A stretch of DNA of 24,475 nucleotides from Oscillospiraceae bacterium (lineage in GTDB: Bacteria > Bacillota > Clostridia > Oscillospirales > Acutalibacteraceae), in the NCBI GenBank assembly GCA_031547365.1, contig JAVBSB010000052.1, positions 1 to 24,475 on the forward strand. The letters are read 5' to 3'. The notes beneath the pieces were generated by a model. That model saw only the letters and a program-made list of their open reading frames with translations. It was not told the DNA's origin and made no database searches. Positions 5,049 to 18,122 of the stretch are shown one piece after another. The position numbers and the translations under genes were made by a program. Numbering within the stretch: the first letter of the stretch is position 1; every line of letters begins with the position of its first letter.

Positions 5049-6032
5049 TTAAGGCTGCGCCGGTGTGATACCGTATGCGGTCAGTACTTTCGCGGGCGCG
5101 CCGGTAAATGCAGCCGTGACGTCGGTGCTGTCTGCGGCGTCCATGTCAACGTGAACGGCGTAATAAAACGCGCCTGCGGGCGACTGAATGAGTGTGATTG
5201 ATTCCAGCAGCTTTGCGGTGGCTTCGCCGGGATTTAGCTCCTGCCCCCAATACGCCCAGCCCTCCGTACTGCTGTCGTCCAAAATCCATTTGGCAGCGGC
5301 TGTGCCGTCCCAATTGCTTAACTTTACAACCTGTGTCCCCAGCGCCCACTCCACATACTGGTGGAATGGGTCTGCCGCGGCGCTGTTCCAGCGGTGCGGC
5401 GTGTAGAGGCATTCGCCGGCGGCGTGGGCTGCGCGGTCGGGGTTATATGCTGCGCGCGTTACGCCGGGAACCAGAGAGGTTTTCGCGCCGGCAGCGGCAT
5501 AGCTGAGAATCATTTTTTTGCCATAGAGCCCGTTGTACCTTGTGTTTTCGTCGGTTGCATAATAGTAACGCGCCGCCGTATCATTGTAGGCTTTATATTG
5601 CTTGATCTGTGCGTCATTTATGATTAGCCGGGGGTAGTTTGCGGTCAGCCAGACCTTTAGGTTTGCTGCTGTATCCGCGGCTGCAAAGCTGCCGTCGCTG
5701 TGCACAAGCAGATACTCGCTCGTATAAGTGTAGTCCACCTGCGCGACATCCATAAACTCTTTCAGCTGCATACGGATAAACACTTTACCTTCGCCGCTGT
5801 TTTTGACCCAAACTTTTTTTGTCAGGGTTTCGTCGGTATTCCACTCGTCAGGCTGTTCATAATCTTCAATCAGCACAACATCCTGTAAGGCGGTGCTGCC
5901 GTCGCCCGTAGCAATATTGGTTTTGTGCTGGCTGTGGTCCTTCCATGCCCAGGTTCCGCCGAGGATGCTCAGCAGCGTGAAAAGCGCCGCAAAAAGAGCC
6001 AACGCTTTACGATGGGATGATATAAAACGCAT
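5049..6032 (-). CDS. BsaA/TasA-like SipW-dependent biofilm matrix/fibre subunit 2
   Basis: SipW-type signal ...ILGGTWA/WKDHSQHKTNIATG. KKVWVKNSG..VFIRMQLKE and GWAYWGQELNPGEATAKLLESITL blocks. Clear paralogue of 8505..10082. Confidence 0.8.
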   Translation of the reverse strand: MRFISSHRKALALFAALFTLLSILGGTWAWKDHSQHKTNIATGDGSTALQDVVLIEDYEQPDEWNTDETLTKKVWVKNSGEGKVFIRMQLKEFMDVAQVDYTYTSEYLLVHSDGSFAAADTAANLKVWLTANYPRLIINDAQIKQYKAYNDTAARYYYATDENTRYNGLYGKKMILSYAAAGAKTSLVPGVTRAAYNPDRAAHAAGECLYTPHRWNSAAADPFHQYVEWALGTQVVKLSNWDGTAAAKWILDDSSTEGWAYWGQELNPGEATAKLLESITLIQSPAGAFYYAVHVDMDAADSTDVTAAFTGAPAKVLTAYGITPAQP

Positions 6033-10154: not shown

Positions 10155-10892
10155 TTAAACGTTTTTGGTTCGTCTTGTTTTTTTCTCTTTCTTTTTTCTT
10201 GGCTTCCTTTCGCCTTCCTGCTTTTTTTCTTCCTTGCTTTTTCGCGGCTTACCTAAAGCAATGCGCAGGAAGAAAGACAGCGCCAGCAATCCGCCGAACC
10301 ACAGCAGTATCAGCAAGAGATGATCCTTTACGAACTGCAAAATGCTCCCAAGCAGGGGGATGGATAAAATGACTACGCCCAGCACATTGTCCGCGTGCGT
10401 GATATCCAGGTCCGGAGAAATGTTTTCGACGCCCTTTGTTTCAAAGCCGCGCTTGCCGTTTTCATCAAAGTTGCCCAGAATGCCGACTACCTTATGGGTT
10501 GTGGTTTTATTGCCGTTATTTGAAAAGAAGGTGATGTTTTGACCAAGCTTTATCAGGTTGGGGTCGGTTTTTTTGACCAGTACAAGCGAGCCCTTCGGGA
10601 TTTCGCGCTGCATACTGCCGGAAAGGACGTTAAAGACATAAAAACCGGCGATATCCCGTGCGCCTCTGTCCCCCGCGTTGGTAGCGCATATGACCGCGAC
10701 AAAGCAGGCAAGGACCAGCGCGACACAAAAGATGATGTTTGACACAGCCTTCCAAACGACCTTGCTCTTGCCTGTGCCTTTCGGTTCCGGCGGCGCGCTG
10801 TGGCATGCGCCGGACTCAAGCATAGTCAGCAGCTCGTCAACAAAAGCTTCATCTTCAAGGTATTCATCAATATATACCTCTGGCACCATCAT
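10155..10892 (-). CDS. sipW: Signal peptidase I, SipW (ER/archaeal type)
   Basis: NVLSGSM (catalytic Ser codon 10614-10616), TTTHKV (His codon 10494-10496), ETKG..N..D, two TM segments and a Lys-rich tail. Start moved to 10892 because the promoter at 10942-10970 lies inside the longer ORF call. Confidence 0.9.
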   Translation of the reverse strand: MMVPEVYIDEYLEDEAFVDELLTMLESGACHSAPPEPKGTGKSKVVWKAVSNIIFCVALVLACFVAVICATNAGDRGARDIAGFYVFNVLSGSMQREIPKGSLVLVKKTDPNLIKLGQNITFFSNNGNKTTTHKVVGILGNFDENGKRGFETKGVENISPDLDITHADNVLGVVILSIPLLGSILQFVKDHLLLILLWFGGLLALSFFLRIALGKPRKSKEEKKQEGERKPRKKKEKKTRRTKNV

Positions 10893-10941
10893 AACTTTTT
10901 TACATTCCTGTGTTTTTATTTTCCGGCTTTCACACGCTATC

Positions 10942-10970
10942 ATTGTAACGTGTGAATGTATAAATGTCAA
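10942..10970 (-). promoter_or_regulatory. SigA-type promoter of the sipW operon
   Basis: TTGACA (10970-10965), 17 bp, TACAAT (10947-10942). Confidence 0.8.
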
Positions 10971-11105
10971 CAAAGTCAGTGTGCTAATAGGTGAAGAATG
11001 CGGATATAAAAACACATAGCACAAAATATGGAAACGTCTTTGTAATTCGATGCCAGTTTCTGAAACGCGCCTGCTAACATATTCCAGAGATAAATCGCTA
11101 AGCTT

Positions 11106-14100: not shown

Positions 14101-14430
14101 ATGGATGCCCTTGTCTTTTAGCAGAACCAACAATTCTTTCAGGCTGTCTTTGTCCTGCAAAAACGGTTCGCCGCCCGAGAGCGTAACGCCGCCCTGCGAT
14201 TGCGTATAGTATTTTTCATCTCGAAGCACCAATTCCGCAATCTCTTGCGCGGAGAGAATTTCATCACCCTCCTGCGGCAGGCGAGAAAGAATTTCGGGGT
14301 TTTGGCACCACTGACAACGCAGCGCACAACCTCTAAAAAATAGAGTCGTGCGCAGCCCGGGACCGTCGTGTACGCAGCTGCGTTGCACGCGGACGACATT
14401 AAGCCTTGTTTTTGTCTGAACCATTGGCAT
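11167..14430 (-). CDS. Fusion of glycyl-radical activating enzyme (radical SAM) and glycyl radical enzyme (PFL-like family, non-PFL)
   Basis: aa 1-~260: HDGPGLRT, CALRCQWC, GGVTLSGGEP. aa ~267-1087: GELLVGN, IVGCVEP (Cys695), RVAGY (Gly1064). One uninterrupted ORF with RBS AGGAGG at 14438-14443. Confidence 0.93.
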   Translation of the reverse strand: MPMVQTKTRLNVVRVQRSCVHDGPGLRTTLFFRGCALRCQWCQNPEILSRLPQEGDEILSAQEIAELVLRDEKYYTQSQGGVTLSGGEPFLQDKDSLKELLVLLKDKGIHIAAETALCAPWKTIEALLPYIDLFLVDLKLVGSAQVHKDLTGKDDKLIHGNFEKLVARGANLRIRMLMVPGLNDSEAQIKAAAEYIKSFGFDQIELMKYHNMYEGKAARLDLEIPQLNITPEQSLFSLKKGIDLFRQYGVSARNDDLAENPPQAQFTQRVLDIQSAIRESERSICFEVSRLKTEYYKKYDGFKKPVAIHRAQRLHYVLGRKKTIVYPGELLVGNFTSKRVAGQIWEEQYGTLYVTFLYKAAKQTPVAFSSTKEERSYFYKHIFPYWLNKSTVMRGHTSFGKLFLNLARIAETSTGFNNNFAAIAHYVVNFERILELGTTGLKAEARAMAKAHPENNQDFYRGVLIALDALEIWAERYAQALRTLAVNESDRTRRAELEKMEAICRRVPKHPARTFHEALQSMLFLQIALCIEAYENAVSFGRIDQILFPYFRRDLEAGRITYEEAKELLCLFVLKMDEVILVNDGDGLLNVSKLFETLSVDQALTFGGVDKDGNDAVNDVTYMCIDACELQPLAINMCARIHEKNPARYLDRLAEIYINGCPMPELFSDNIYFDTLTKHYDTTIENARNYSIVGCVEPVASDDHFGNTDSANMNLALPLLQALKGHEHDLWNFGFGLQVEKMVTRVIEFAKPDLAERREKAIVKRNRKRGLYEYNPPKDMTELLSRFKARLNALAKSILDDQQTIERALREYYTTPLASSLYRGCMESGKDAYEGGTKYNTAGIQAVGVTDVADSLYAIDELVFKQKKYSLLQVIQAIDANFEGEAHQSLRKDLLAVPKFGDDSSIDAASWVSRVMQIYNEALEACPYALRNGQYTAGYYALNVSDRYGIKTQALPSGRRKGVPLANSVAPHYGMEKADLLSSLNALAQVNFTDYAVNGTTATFTIDAALFPGEQGVKNLGGIFKTFLTTGGMQFQPNIISRDLLLDAYNHPEKYKYLMVRVAGYCAYFNELSDDLKKVIINRTCYG

Positions 14431-14462
14431 ATGCTCGCCTCCTGTTGTGATTGATTATCCTC

Positions 14463-14491
14463 ATTATAGCATAACACCAATAAAATATCCA
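14463..14491 (-). promoter_or_regulatory. Extended -10 promoter of the GRE fusion gene
   Basis: TGCTATAAT (14471-14463) with TGGATA at 17-bp spacing (14491-14486). Confidence 0.6.
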
Positions 14492-14521
14492 GCTCTTAAT
14501 AGGATAATGTTAAAAAAAATC

Positions 14522-14550
14522 TTGCTTTCCGGCACAAGATATAGTATAAT
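14522..14550 (+). promoter_or_regulatory. SigA-type promoter of the DivIVA-like operon
   Basis: TTGCTT (14522-14527), 17 bp, TATAAT (14545-14550). Confidence 0.6.
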
Positions 14551-14608
14551 ATATAATGTATAGGACTATATTCATTCGCAAGTCGATGAAAAAAGAAAGG
14601 TATGGATT

Positions 14609-15295
14609 GTGTCAATGAAGGATGACTATCTGCCAAATGAAAAATATCGCAATATGTTCGGAGTAGAGCGCAACGGTTATGGTTGTGAGCGTGTAGACCT
14701 TTATCTTGCGCAGCTGGAAGTTGCGTTTAAAAAAATTCGCGAGGATAACCGCAACCTCAAGCGTGAGCTGACAGAGCAAAGCCCTGCGTATACAGGGGCA
14801 GCCTCCCCGCGCGAGGGCGAGTTGATTGCGCAATTGGAGCAGCAGGGGCAGTACATAATGCAGCTGCAGGCGCAGCTGGCGGAACAGCAGGAGTATAGCC
14901 GCCAGATGACAGGGACGCTCGATATTAACGCAGATAATCCTAACGACGCGCTGCTTGTGCAAATAGAGGCCTTGCGCGGCGAGGCAGACGCATTGCGGCA
15001 GCAATTGCGCCGCCAGGCAACCGGCGCGCCGGCGGTAAACGAAGAGGAACAACAAAATATGATCGGCAAAGTGCTGGTCGAAGCGCGCTCGCAAGCGGAA
15101 GAAACCTTGCGCAACGCAAGGCAGGAGTCCGACGCTATGATGCGCAAAGCCCGCCAAAAGGTGGAGGAGCTGCGCAGCGAACAAGAACGCGTCCAGAGCC
15201 AGCTGCAGGCAATATCTTACGGTTTGCGCAACGTTTTGCGTGGTACTGCGGGTGCGGAATATCAACAGCGGGGTGAAGATTTTGCGGCATCTTGA
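14609..15295 (+). CDS. DivIVA-domain coiled-coil protein
   Basis: N-terminal FGVERNGYGCERVDLYLAQL matches the DivIVA F..RGY..EVD.FL motif. C-terminal LVEARSQAEETLRNARQESDAMMRKARQ resembles the DivIVA C-terminal coil. GTG start with RBS AGAAAGG (ATG 14615 is an alternative). Confidence 0.75.
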   Translation: MSMKDDYLPNEKYRNMFGVERNGYGCERVDLYLAQLEVAFKKIREDNRNLKRELTEQSPAYTGAASPREGELIAQLEQQGQYIMQLQAQLAEQQEYSRQMTGTLDINADNPNDALLVQIEALRGEADALRQQLRRQATGAPAVNEEEQQNMIGKVLVEARSQAEETLRNARQESDAMMRKARQKVEELRSEQERVQSQLQAISYGLRNVLRGTAGAEYQQRGEDFAAS

Positions 15296-15989
15296 AAAGA
15301 AAACAACCGAGCTGTCTCCTGAAGCCAGAGCCTTTATAGACGAGGTCGATCAGCTGGCGGGCGAAGTGCTTGTCGCAGACAAAGAATTGGCTATGCCCAT
15401 CAGCCGAGAGCACGCAAAAAGAATGAAAACGCTGGCTAATGTTTTTTATGTTGTTGTAGTTGTGCTGGGCTTGCTGGTCGGGTTTGTACTGCTGCTCAAC
15501 CGTTACGCAAGCAACGGTATACTTGGTATGCGCTTTTTTGTGGAGCAGACCAACGCCATGAATACAACGGTGCCGCGCGGTTCACTGCTGGTCACCGTAA
15601 CGCGCTCGAGCGAAAAAATCAAGAAAAACGACATTATAACCTACTATGCCGTTCAGACGGATCCTGACACCCGCCTGACCCGTATCGTAGACGAGTGCTT
15701 AAAAACCAACGGCATTCCTTTCTTTCGCACAAGGCGCGCAGGCAGCGCGCAGCCGGACAGCATGCTGATCAATATGACGAACATTCTCGGCGTAAAGCTG
15801 GCAATCATACCTTATGCCGGTTATGTCATATCGTTTATACAGACCTATGCATACGGATTTGCGGTGCTGGCGGCCGCGATGTGCGTTGCTGCGATTGCGC
15901 TGCGCCGCTGGTCGTTTAAGGAACATCCCGAAATGAAAAAGAAGCGGAAAAAGAAGAACAAAGGAAAGGTGCGTCATGCGGACGTATAA
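15282..15989 (+). CDS. SipW-like (peptidase S26) protein, probably catalytically inactive
   Basis: Co-linear with SipW: VPRGSLL, IKKNDIITY, NILGV, IPYAGYVISF, two TMs and a Lys-rich tail. SGSM is TNAM and THK/RV is LTRIV. TTG start at 15282 with RBS GGGGTG. Confidence 0.75.
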   Translation: MRHLEKKTTELSPEARAFIDEVDQLAGEVLVADKELAMPISREHAKRMKTLANVFYVVVVVLGLLVGFVLLLNRYASNGILGMRFFVEQTNAMNTTVPRGSLLVTVTRSSEKIKKNDIITYYAVQTDPDTRLTRIVDECLKTNGIPFFRTRRAGSAQPDSMLINMTNILGVKLAIIPYAGYVISFIQTYAYGFAVLAAAMCVAAIALRRWSFKEHPEMKKKRKKKNKGKVRHADV

Positions 15990-17259
15990 CTCGGAAGAAT
16001 CGCTGCCCAAGCAGGCGATCGCTCTGCGCGTTCGCATTCTTCGGTTGCGCATCAGCACTTTTTTTGCAGGCAGACGGATTCGTTCGCTACGCAGTAAAGA
16101 GCAATCGAATATCATTCCGCGCCGCTGGCCTTTTGTAGGGTGCCTGCTGCTTTGTCTTGGCGCGGTTGTGTCCGCGATTGTGCTGTCGGTTTTAGCGAAC
16201 ACGCAGCCGCAGCTGCATAATCTTGACGGCAGCTTTGCGAGCGTGGATAAAGTGGTTATCCTGGACCCGAACAGCAAAGACGAAACGATGCTTTCTGCGG
16301 GCTATTTGTACGACAGACCGATTGCGGTTGTGCAGACCGGTACTGACCCGGTTCTGCTGCGCATCCGTCTGGAAGAAACGCTGCTTACTGCCGCGCACGA
16401 TGAAAACGGTCGCGTTGTGTCAGTCAAGCCTATGATTGACCCGGGCGAAAACTGGGAGCCGCGCATGATTGAACAGGATGCGGCTTTGGAAATTCTGCGT
16501 AAAAATGGGTACTGCAAGGCGACCGACACATGGGACGATGCGCTGGAACTGAAATTGCCCGAAGCGCGGATGCCGGGCGGCAACGACGGCGGCCGTCTAA
16601 TGGTGTTTGAGAAAAAAACTGTGATCGCCGACCCCGATTCACCCATCCCTGACATCAGCGTGATGCGTCCGGAGGACATTGAAGCCTATGATTTAGGCAA
16701 GACTTCTTATGATTATATTGGATTTTATTATATCAACGTTGGCGGCAAGCAATATTATCAACCGCTGCATATTGCTGTAGATGATGATGCGCCGCGCAAT
16801 CCGACGCAAAGCCCTCCGAATATTACGAACATATCCTATGAGTTTTACCAGTGGGATATAAAGGAATCGCAGGTACATCAGTTCGGCGCGGAGCAAAACG
16901 GACCGGTCAATTTGCAGCTGGGTCATCTGCGCCCGATTGCTGAATGGACAAAGCCGGAGGATGCATGGTTTTATGACATAGACGGCTGGGTATACTACGG
17001 GCAGGCGCTGTCGTCCGGTTTGATGACCCCTCTGCTGCTGCAAAGCTTTTCTGTTGAGCCCGAAAGCCCGCTGGTACAAAACGAAACGCGCTACCGCCTT
17101 GGGGAACGCGCACAAAGCGTTTCGCTTGATTTGAACTCGGTCATATCCATTTGGAATAGCAACACACCGCTTGGCACGCTCGGCACGAGCAACATGAGCA
17201 ACGAATCGCTGCGGCTGGTGCAGGGTATTTTAAGCGCGGCAGGAATAAAAGAAGAATAA
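15976..17259 (+). CDS. BsaA-like paralogue with an Arg-rich cytoplasmic N-terminus and a TM anchor
   Basis: VVQTGTDPVLLRIRLEE and DGWVYYGQALSSGLMTPLLLQSFSV align to blocks in 5049..6032 and 8505..10082. Hydrophobic segment at about aa 52-73. RBS AAAGG. Confidence 0.7.
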   Translation: MRTYNSEESLPKQAIALRVRILRLRISTFFAGRRIRSLRSKEQSNIIPRRWPFVGCLLLCLGAVVSAIVLSVLANTQPQLHNLDGSFASVDKVVILDPNSKDETMLSAGYLYDRPIAVVQTGTDPVLLRIRLEETLLTAAHDENGRVVSVKPMIDPGENWEPRMIEQDAALEILRKNGYCKATDTWDDALELKLPEARMPGGNDGGRLMVFEKKTVIADPDSPIPDISVMRPEDIEAYDLGKTSYDYIGFYYINVGGKQYYQPLHIAVDDDAPRNPTQSPPNITNISYEFYQWDIKESQVHQFGAEQNGPVNLQLGHLRPIAEWTKPEDAWFYDIDGWVYYGQALSSGLMTPLLLQSFSVEPESPLVQNETRYRLGERAQSVSLDLNSVISIWNSNTPLGTLGTSNMSNESLRLVQGILSAAGIKEE

Positions 17260-17267
17260 AGTCTTCC

Positions 17268-18122
17268 ATGTTATATTATAGTGCCGGGAGGGGCAATCAT
17301 ATCAAACGCGTTGCCGTAATACAGGATATCTCCGGGCTGGGACGCTGTTCGCTTGCGGCGGCGTTGCCGGTGCTTTCTGTGATGGGTATGCATTGCTGTC
17401 CCGTACCGACGGCAGTGTTGACGAATCAGACTGGCTTTCCGCGCTATGCGTCGCTTGACTGCGGCGCTATGCTGCGCGAATTGCCTGCGCTTTGGAAAGA
17501 AAATAAAGTTGCGTTGGATGGCATTTATGCGGGGTTTATGTCCTCGCAGCAACAGTTTGACGCCGCGCAGGCTGTGATTGATGCCTTCCGCAGACCCGAT
17601 ACCCTGCTGTTGATTGACCCGGTAATGGGAGACAACGGTAGCCGCTATCCGTGCTTTGATGCGGCGTTTTGTGATAAGATACGTACATTTTCCGCGCAGG
17701 CGGATATTCTTACCCCGAATGTAACAGAGGCTTGCCTGTTGGCGCAGGCGGATTATGAAGCTTTTATTAAAGGAACGGTACAGCAGCAGGAACGAGCCTT
17801 GCGTGAAATCTGCGAAGCCTTGCCCGCAAGGGCTGTGGTTGTCACAGGCTGGCGCAAAAACGGTATGATCTGTAACGCGGCGTGGCAGGACGGCGCTTTT
17901 AAATGCTACGAAAGCCCTGCGGAAAAAGGCTCTTACTCCGGAACAGGGGATTTGTTTGCGTCTGTGCTCTGCGGCGGCTTGTTGCGCGGCGAAGGCTTGG
18001 AGCAATCAATTTTGCTGGGCATGCGCTTTTTAGAGGCTGCGCTGCGCGACGCTGTGCATGAAGGTCTGCCGGAGGCGGAGGGGGTTCCGTTTGAACGTCA
18101 CTTAAAGGAGTTGCTGGCTTGA
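17268..18122 (+). CDS. pdxK: Pyridoxal/pyridoxamine kinase (start may be ATC at 17301)
   Basis: RVAVIQDISGLGRCSL, PVPTAVLTNQTGF, IDPVMGDNG, LTPNVTEACLL and the ribokinase-family anion hole GTGDLFAS. Confidence 0.88.
   Translation: MLYYSAGRGNHIKRVAVIQDISGLGRCSLAAALPVLSVMGMHCCPVPTAVLTNQTGFPRYASLDCGAMLRELPALWKENKVALDGIYAGFMSSQQQFDAAQAVIDAFRRPDTLLLIDPVMGDNGSRYPCFDAAFCDKIRTFSAQADILTPNVTEACLLAQADYEAFIKGTVQQQERALREICEALPARAVVVTGWRKNGMICNAAWQDGAFKCYESPAEKGSYSGTGDLFASVLCGGLLRGEGLEQSILLGMRFLEAALRDAVHEGLPEAEGVPFERHLKELLA

Follow-up and report, generated by a model that had tools for sequence, protein, structure and literature searches.

The 24,475-nucleotide stretch analysed here (contig JAVBSB010000052.1 of assembly GCA_031547365.1, from an Oscillospiraceae bacterium; hereafter the window) carries at 15282-15989 on the + strand an open reading frame for a homologue of the type I signal peptidase SipW. 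Judged from its sequence, this protein is catalytically dead and belongs to the signal-peptidase lineage, and we refer to it as dead SipW. The nucleophile Ser and the general-base His are both replaced, neither residue is found in any of 41 orthologues, and the gene context favours a binding or scaffold role toward a 427-residue membrane protein encoded directly downstream.

Loss of the catalytic residues

The frame encodes 235 residues. An alternative GTG start at 15240 would add 14 residues, but we favour the start at 15282 because orthologues begin with MPRL where the window has LRHL. The frame overlaps its neighbours by 14 nt at both junctions, with an upstream DivIVA-like frame ending at 15295 and the frame of the 427-residue protein starting at 15976. 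Its features are as follows.

15282..15989, + strand: dead SipW-type signal peptidase I homologue, 235 residues, TTG start at 15282 and TAA stop at 15987-15989
15318..15371, + strand: acidic cytoplasmic N-terminal helix, residues 13-30, EARAFIDEVDQLAGEVL (AlphaFold2 (AF2) model)
15423..15506, + strand: membrane helix 1, about residues 48-75 (AF2 helix 42-75; the NCBIfam SipW alignment begins at residue 48)
15555..15557, + strand: GCC codon of Ala92 in TNAM, box B, at the nucleophile Ser position (hhalign, HMMER, MAFFT)
15678..15680, + strand: ACC codon of Thr133 in LTRIV, box D, at the general-base His position, with Arg134 kept (hhalign, HMMER)
15729..15761, + strand: box E remnant TRRAGSAQPDS, in which Ala153 replaces the structural Asp of TKGDAN and the triad Asp is Asp159, followed by Ser160
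15816..15923, + strand: membrane helix 2, about residues 179-214 (AF2 helices 179-188 and 190-214)
15924..15986, + strand: basic, Lys-rich cytoplasmic tail (from the sequence; net charge +9)

Residue equivalences were taken from three alignments, made with MAFFT, with hhalign against active SipWs and with HMMER against human SEC11A, and the structure model agrees with them. All three place Ala92 at the nucleophile Ser (Ser56 in SEC11A) and Met93 at the Met that follows it, and all three place Thr133 at the general-base His (His96) and Arg134 at the next Arg (Arg97). The TKGDAN motif of active enzymes faces TK/RRAGx, with Ala153 at its first Asp (Asp116 in SEC11A). SEC11A uses a Ser56/His96/Asp122 triad, and its Asp116 is the structural partner of Arg97 (bioRxiv 10.1101/2020.11.11.378711). 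The third member of the triad is retained, as the invariant Asp159 corresponds to Asp122. No His occurs between the two membrane helices of the window protein.

A sequence-only reading of this stretch had proposed the same replacements (Ser to Ala at GCC 15555-15557, His to Thr at ACC 15678-15680, and TKG..N to TRRAGS), and the three alignments and the structure model bear out all of them, with codons and coordinates correct; the retained triad Asp is an addition to that description. It had also asked whether realignment would place alternative catalytic residues, and hhalign, HMMER and MAFFT found none. The two-helix topology and Lys-rich tail that it described are likewise present in the AF2 model (helices 42-75 and 179-214) and in the tail charge of +9. 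This charge is a family trait: from residue 209 onward it is positive in 29/29 orthologues, with values of +7 to +12 for 23. At the base of the tail, R208 and W210 are invariant.

Conservation and age of the dead family

A protein search returned 42 relatives with protein identities of 43-63%, all annotated as hypothetical or without a name, and contig scans yielded 43 metagenome loci and 8 genome loci. The genome records are Oscillospiraceae or Bacillota metagenome-assembled genomes (MAGs), for example Lab288P3bin30, Co191P4bin15, Th196P3bin85 and Emb289P1bin98, isolate names in a style that we take to be that of termite-gut MAG sets. The sequencing runs in which the window is present carry the label invertebrate gut metagenome. 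The dead SipW family is conserved in termite-gut-type Oscillospiraceae.

Across 41 orthologous coding sequences the Ser position is occupied by Ala (38) or Val (3) and never by Ser, and the His position is Thr in every one, with Arg134 kept in 41/41. E88, T90, M93, R131, R134, V136, D159 and S160 are invariant in the same set. Among 29 aligned orthologues 31 columns are invariant, and these cluster in boxes B-E (F85-E88, M93, G100, L102, R131, T133-V136, T150, D159 and S160), which correspond to the four stretches lining the active-site groove of active enzymes. When 1.84 billion representatives were searched, 11 clusters matched at E < 1e-30, all without the Ser and the His, including four shorter and more distant dead forms (P0050-53). 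One of the short forms, P0050, had no close relative in 400 genomes of the order. In a tree built without the catalytic columns, the 15 dead-family rows form a single clade (Shimodaira-Hasegawa approximate likelihood-ratio test 99) on a long stem. Because the dead rows make up one supported clade on such a stem, the sequences fit one old inactivation followed by diversification.

We estimated the ratio of nonsynonymous to synonymous substitution rates (dN/dS) by the pairwise Nei-Gojobori method on the same 22 loci for four genes. The ratio is 0.46 for dead SipW, 0.45 for the 427-residue partner, 0.33 for the DivIVA-like gene and 0.27 for the adjoining, housekeeping kinase gene, with dN at 0.51 for dead SipW versus 0.52 for the partner; frames are intact at a dS of about 1.1-1.3, and saturation inflates all of the ratios. 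By region, dN/dS is 0.47-0.63 throughout dead SipW, and with the Nei-Gojobori estimates near saturation the ectodomain is not separated from the rest. On these estimates dead SipW is a fast-evolving gene under purifying selection, and a 705-nt frame free of constraint would not be expected to remain open across 40 lineages at such divergence. The sequence-only reading had taken the protein for a retained pseudo-enzyme rather than a case of recent decay and had named dN/dS and orthologue conservation as checks; the ratio of 0.46 over 22 loci, the 31 invariant columns in 29 orthologues and the absence of Ser or His from all 41 orthologues uphold it.

Descent and fold

Dead SipW is securely placed, by homology and predicted fold, as a diverged signal peptidase I homologue of the endoplasmic reticulum (ER)/archaeal type (SipW/Sec11). 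A Pfam scan assigned no family to it or to the 427-residue protein. The NCBIfam SipW model NF046067 matches it at E 4e-11 (42.8 bits, below the cut-off of 190) and TIGR02228, the archaeal/ER-type signal peptidase model, at E 5e-9 (36.2 bits, below the cut-off of 51.85), so that the curated family cut-offs for the ER/archaeal type are not reached; the P-type model TIGR02227 gives just E 0.13. As a comparator we used the active paralogue of the window.

10155..11024, - strand: active SipW paralogue (SGSM, THKV) of the neighbouring fibre operon, scoring 82.9 bits with TIGR02228, above the cut-off

BLASTP aligns dead SipW with this paralogue over nearly its full length at 24% identity (E 4e-12). 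Alignment by hhalign of a profile of 29 orthologues with 13 active SipWs of related genomes gave a probability of 99.7% and E 1e-26. Against the PDB, the orthologue profile found human SEC11A/SEC11C at E 3e-4 to 5e-3 (SEC11A, 9rjb and 7p2p, at E 3e-4), and a single-sequence phmmer search with dead SipW returned nothing beyond chance Wzc matches at E 0.3.

The AF2 model (mean predicted local distance difference test (pLDDT) 78.9) places a beta domain between two long helices. Foldseek matched it to SEC11C (7p2q) at E 6.6e-5 and to SEC11A at E 5e-4. With VIA-align the best match was Streptococcus pyogenes SipA (4n31, Z 11.1), followed by SEC11C (Z 10.3 over residues 48-190) and Escherichia coli LepB (Z 10.2); LexA/UmuD were also matched. 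By model, Foldseek and VIA-align alike, the extracytoplasmic domain is predicted to have the LexA/signal-peptidase (S24/S26) fold.

The 427-residue protein

The gene directly downstream encodes a protein that is equally restricted in its distribution: we found 46 matches to it, all hypothetical.

15976..17259, + strand: 427-residue type-II membrane protein, TasA/BsaA-related, with an Arg-rich leader and an uncleavable-looking anchor, directly 3' of dead SipW in nearly every locus with enough flanking sequence

Several comparisons connect this protein with the substrates of active SipWs. The TIGR04090 model (BsaA family, SipW-dependent) matches it weakly (E 0.0076). A C-terminal block, W..D..GW.YYGq.L.PG..T.LL, is common to it and to the BsaA-like subunit of the window at 5049-6032 (hhalign probability 86.9%, E 4e-6), and tblastn with that subunit finds the 427-residue orthologue of a sister species at E 3.7e-8. 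A homologue resembles the Atlas clusters named 'alternate signal-mediated exported protein', 'BsaA family SipW-dependent biofilm matrix protein' and 'SipW-cognate class signal peptide family', which we treat as leads only. No PDB entry was matched by the profile of the 427-residue family.

The N-termini of the two kinds of protein differ. Substrates of the active operon have short signal peptides that end in GTYA|A, GTWA|W and GTMA|W. Members of the 427-residue family instead have an Arg-rich leader of 44-64 residues with a net charge of +8 to +19, followed by one membrane helix with an invariant Cys, and no GTxA|A/W cleavage site was found in the family. At the would-be -1/-3 positions small residues are not conserved, and H, Y, N, D and E occur in several lineages. 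From its sequence, the 427-residue protein is kin of TasA/BsaA-type SipW substrates in which a cleavable signal peptide has been exchanged for a leader and an anchor. Since Ser and His are gone from the peptidase and the cleavage site is gone from its neighbour, peptidase and probable ligand have both shed their cleavage features.

A conserved gene module

The order DivIVA-like gene, dead SipW, 427-residue protein, PfkB-type kinase and energy-coupling factor (ECF) S-component is constant in the loci with enough flanking sequence (about 25), and the sister species of the same genus has the same order. The glycyl-radical enzyme gene upstream and the active fibre operon of the window lie outside this conserved neighbourhood. 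In the other loci no active SipW or fibre gene was found within 7 kb of dead SipW, where the 427-residue gene always is, and neither the Pfam scan nor the comparison of loci detected a sortase in the module.

14609..15295, + strand: DivIVA/GpsB-like cytoplasmic coiled-coil protein, 228 residues, first gene of the module (Pfam PF05103, 33 bits, E 6.7e-8)

The N-terminal 55 or so residues of the DivIVA-like protein (window 14609-14780; MKEDYVPNEKYRNMFGVERNGYG.ERVDLYLAQLEVAFKKIREDNR) are nearly invariant in 22 orthologues and far more conserved than any other part of the module, and the remainder drops to 49% identity. Domains of this N-terminal type bind membranes, and the one in GpsB also binds partner proteins through their Arg-rich cytoplasmic tails. 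The near-invariance of the segment points to a strongly constrained putative binding surface.

The three genes are probably co-transcribed. In a metatranscriptomic run from the same study as the probable source sample, 91% of sampled words were present. One contig of this RNA library covers 14599-16563 with zero differences, from 10 nt before the DivIVA-like start, through dead SipW and into the 427-residue gene, and a second covers 16613-17316. RNA cover is absent at 14314-14470 and 17454-17767, where cover in the DNA run is even. Such a pattern is consistent with the three genes being transcribed together. Another RNA run, X3, has no cover, which is no evidence of absence.

A promoter consensus scan listed no + strand site upstream of 14609. 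By eye, two TATAAT hexamers lie at 14545-14550 and 14552-14557, about 50-60 nt 5' of the DivIVA-like start. A TTGCTT stands 17 nt before the first of them (window 14521-14557); it matches the -35 consensus at 3/6 positions and therefore went unlisted in the scan.

The acidic N-terminal helix

Residues 13-30 of dead SipW form an acidic helix that BLASTP aligns with EDEAFVDELL of the active paralogue. E21 and L25 of this helix are invariant in the orthologues, 28/29 of which carry a negative net charge over residues 10-32 (median -4). The charges of helix and partner are opposite and conserved, with a median of -4 for the helix versus +8 to +19 for the leader of the 427-residue protein.

A third SipW paralogue is encoded on another contig of this genome (G000:C184:424-1173; L095). 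It looks active, with TGSM, THRV and TKGDHN; box B is followed by an insert, and the acidic segment at the N-terminus reads DVEDILDSV. The sequence-only reading had stated that both SipW copies share an acidic N-terminal helix; the helix is real and conserved, but the count fell short, as the third paralogue has one too. Its further suggestion that the helix docks the DivIVA-like protein found no direct support: an acidic N-terminus is present in three paralogues, two of which have no DivIVA-like neighbour. Because of those two, we favour a less specialised partner, such as the cognate substrate's basic leader.

A regular expression for an acidic-hydrophobic N-terminal motif matched just 6/64 SipW representatives with long N-termini, versus 3% in shuffled sequences. 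This rules out an acidic N-terminus as a general SipW feature, and by its distribution among the sequences the helix is a trait of some SipW lineages.

Proposed role and alternatives

These data allow us to propose that dead SipW is a non-cleaving receptor or holder of the anchor of the 427-residue protein and that the DivIVA-like protein positions the complex, a model drawn from sequence and from analogy with known systems to which we give an even chance of being right. Of the roles that the sequence-only reading had put forward (substrate-binding chaperone, scaffold or dominant-negative regulator), the gene context favours binding or scaffolding of the 427-residue protein. Dead SipW keeps both membrane helices and the substrate-groove segments. 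Its groove would bind the region after the partner's anchor much as a signal peptidase binds a signal peptide, without cutting it, and the 427-residue protein would thereby be kept and presented at the membrane. On the cytoplasmic side, the acidic N-terminal helix would probably pair with the basic leader of the partner, and the DivIVA-like protein would probably supply positioning at a membrane site.

Several observations weigh against this model. The acidic helix is also found in active paralogues and is not specific to the module. Coupling of the genes is not universally tight, as two loci have two extra genes between dead SipW and the 427-residue gene. The RNA-library contigs can neither prove a single transcript nor fully exclude DNA carry-over. 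The TasA/BsaA kinship of the 427-residue protein consists of one C-terminal block and the Atlas leads, and its AF2 model is poor (pLDDT 52), being confident just at residues ~163-288. Finally, dN/dS of dead SipW is just moderately under 1, from estimates inflated by saturation.

The extra genes of the two loci (L046:7700-8870 and L047:7885-9101) encode a multi-pass membrane protein of ~210-235 residues and a membrane-anchored XRE-type helix-turn-helix protein.

A more far-reaching form of the receptor model, which we regard as speculative and unlikely, has dead SipW gripping a TasA/BsaA-type subunit by its uncleaved signal anchor and the DivIVA-like protein siting the pair at a defined place on the membrane, where they would then act as a membrane-fixed base or nucleator for donor-strand fibres.

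Alternatively, dead SipW may work chiefly with the active SipW paralogues rather than with the downstream protein, in hetero-oligomers where substrates are held, passed on or kept back, so that it assists fibre-subunit processing or regulates it in a dominant-negative manner. Such a partnership is suggested by natural single chains that join a dead to an active SipW domain, seen in at least eight representative clusters, by the 3-9 SipW paralogues above the family cut-off in each of five module-carrying genomes checked and by the acidic N-terminus common to all three paralogues of this genome. The fused dead domains, however, belong to clades apart from this family, so the link is by analogy only, and it is the 427-residue gene that is always near, whereas closeness to an active fibre operon is not conserved. 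We consider this arrangement doubtful.

A role in signalling or regulation through the basic cytoplasmic tail, modelled on the second role of Bacillus subtilis SipW, appears distinctly improbable. The tail is basic in all orthologues, with R208 and W210 invariant, and SipW is called bifunctional (Terra et al. 2012, as relayed in PMC4238804), but tail signalling leaves unexplained both the conserved extracellular groove segments and the strict pairing with the 427-residue gene.

It is less probable still that the protein remains a hydrolase whose catalytic residues have moved, perhaps to the invariant Ser160/Asp159/Glu88 or to Thr90/Thr133. The old active-site segments do hold several invariant polar residues, but no His or Lys of the ectodomain is invariant (9/41 orthologues have Arg or Ala in place of Lys172) and the likely substrate has no conserved cleavage site. 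Moreover, we know of no S24/S26 enzyme that works unless Ser is combined with Lys or His. Among pseudoenzymes generally, migrated catalytic residues are on record (PMC10211241).

A decaying pseudogene that by chance is still open would account for the loss of both catalytic residues and for curated model scores under the cut-offs, but is excluded by the orthologue set, in which the frame is intact in >40 lineages (42-63% identity, dS about 1.1) with dN/dS < 1, 31 invariant columns and an identical His replacement in all members, and the gene is seen in the RNA library.

Comparison with known systems

The receptor model has a precedent in SipA of S. pyogenes, an inactive homologue that lacks the Ser and Lys but keeps its peptide-binding cleft; pilus polymerisation cannot proceed without it, and its proposed task is to bind one component at the surface of the membrane so that assembly can take place (PMC4049620). 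SipA (LepA), from the FCT pilus islands, resembles dead SipW in having a signal-peptidase fold without both catalytic residues and in being encoded beside surface-fibre subunit genes; in our family a TasA/BsaA-related gene always lies 3'. The two differ in descent and setting. SipA is P-type (Ser/Lys lineage), has Asp and Gly at the catalytic sites and serves sortase-polymerised pili, whereas dead SipW is of the SipW/Sec11 type, has Ala and Thr at those sites, two membrane helices, and TasA/BsaA-related and DivIVA-like partners without a sortase. P-type descent beside a pilus sortase, which marks the SipA/LepA type, is absent here, and the nearest relatives by sequence are SipW and SEC11.

SipW of B. 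subtilis and of Clostridium perfringens shares with dead SipW its lineage, topology, basic tail and an adjoining TasA/BsaA-family gene, in the operons tapA-sipW-tasA and sipW-bsaA-bsaB-bsaC, respectively (PMC4238804, PMC7395162). These enzymes differ in being active and releasing their substrates, whereas dead SipW orthologues lack the Ser and His and the neighbour lacks a SipW-type site. For B. subtilis SipW a peptidase-independent second role, in surface-adhered biofilm formation, has been reported (Terra et al. 2012, as relayed in PMC4238804).

SpsA of Staphylococcus aureus is similar in that it lacks both catalytic residues and is the chromosomal paralogue of a type I signal peptidase that is active; in assays it showed no peptidase activity (PMC12414704). 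It differs in being P-type, in adjoining the essential SpsB and in lacking a dedicated fibre-subunit partner. Human SEC11A/C (7p2p, 7p2q) are the closest solved relatives by profile and Foldseek, with the same layout of boxes B-E and the Asp122 equivalent; they differ in being active Ser56/His96/Asp122 enzymes within a four-subunit complex (bioRxiv 10.1101/2020.11.11.378711). In the literature searched we found no description of the dead SipW type, the known dead homologues SipA and SpsA being P-type.

Other SipW domains without catalytic residues

As read from the sequences, dead SipW domains arose several other times in Clostridia, some of them fused to active domains. In the two-domain single chains P0054, P0055, P0056, P0058, P0073 and P0129 the dead domain precedes the active one; in P0076 and P0086 the active domain comes first and the dead one has Arg at the His column. 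The fused dead and active halves fall in separate clades and therefore represent at least two old fusions or duplications that diversified.

Three SipW-like genes lie in series at L019 (G119:C9:147810-151370), where the middle one keeps the Ser (DDSM) and has Thr at the His position (FTRVV), as in the window family. At L018 (G154:C90:8113-11592) a stop-to-stop frame of 576 residues has at its end a SipW domain that reads SDSA and in which Cys replaces the His (VICRV). In P0115, of the SipW lineage, the Ser is retained and Lys stands in the His column (LATKRIT), which may reflect a change to a Ser/Lys dyad on an ER-type scaffold.

The related Oscillospiraceae MAGs G201-G205 (the genomes of L065-L069) have 5-11 matches each to the SipW model, 3-9 of them above the cut-off. 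This marked expansion of SipW paralogues presumably extends to TasA/BsaA-type fibre systems.

Significance

Dead SipW is a case from the SipW/Sec11 lineage in which the likely ligand is encoded next door, is related to SipW substrates and no longer has their cleavage site, and in which a probable cytoskeletal positioning protein is co-encoded. With just three genes, the idea of an enzyme turned receptor is directly testable. If dead and active SipW domains do work in pairs, as the natural fusions would suggest, such pairing would be a general strategy of Clostridia rich in fibre systems. The module further suggests a possible base in the membrane for TasA/BsaA-type fibres, which, if true, would add a third means of attaching them to the Gram-positive cell, beside sortase tethering and TapA-type accessory proteins.

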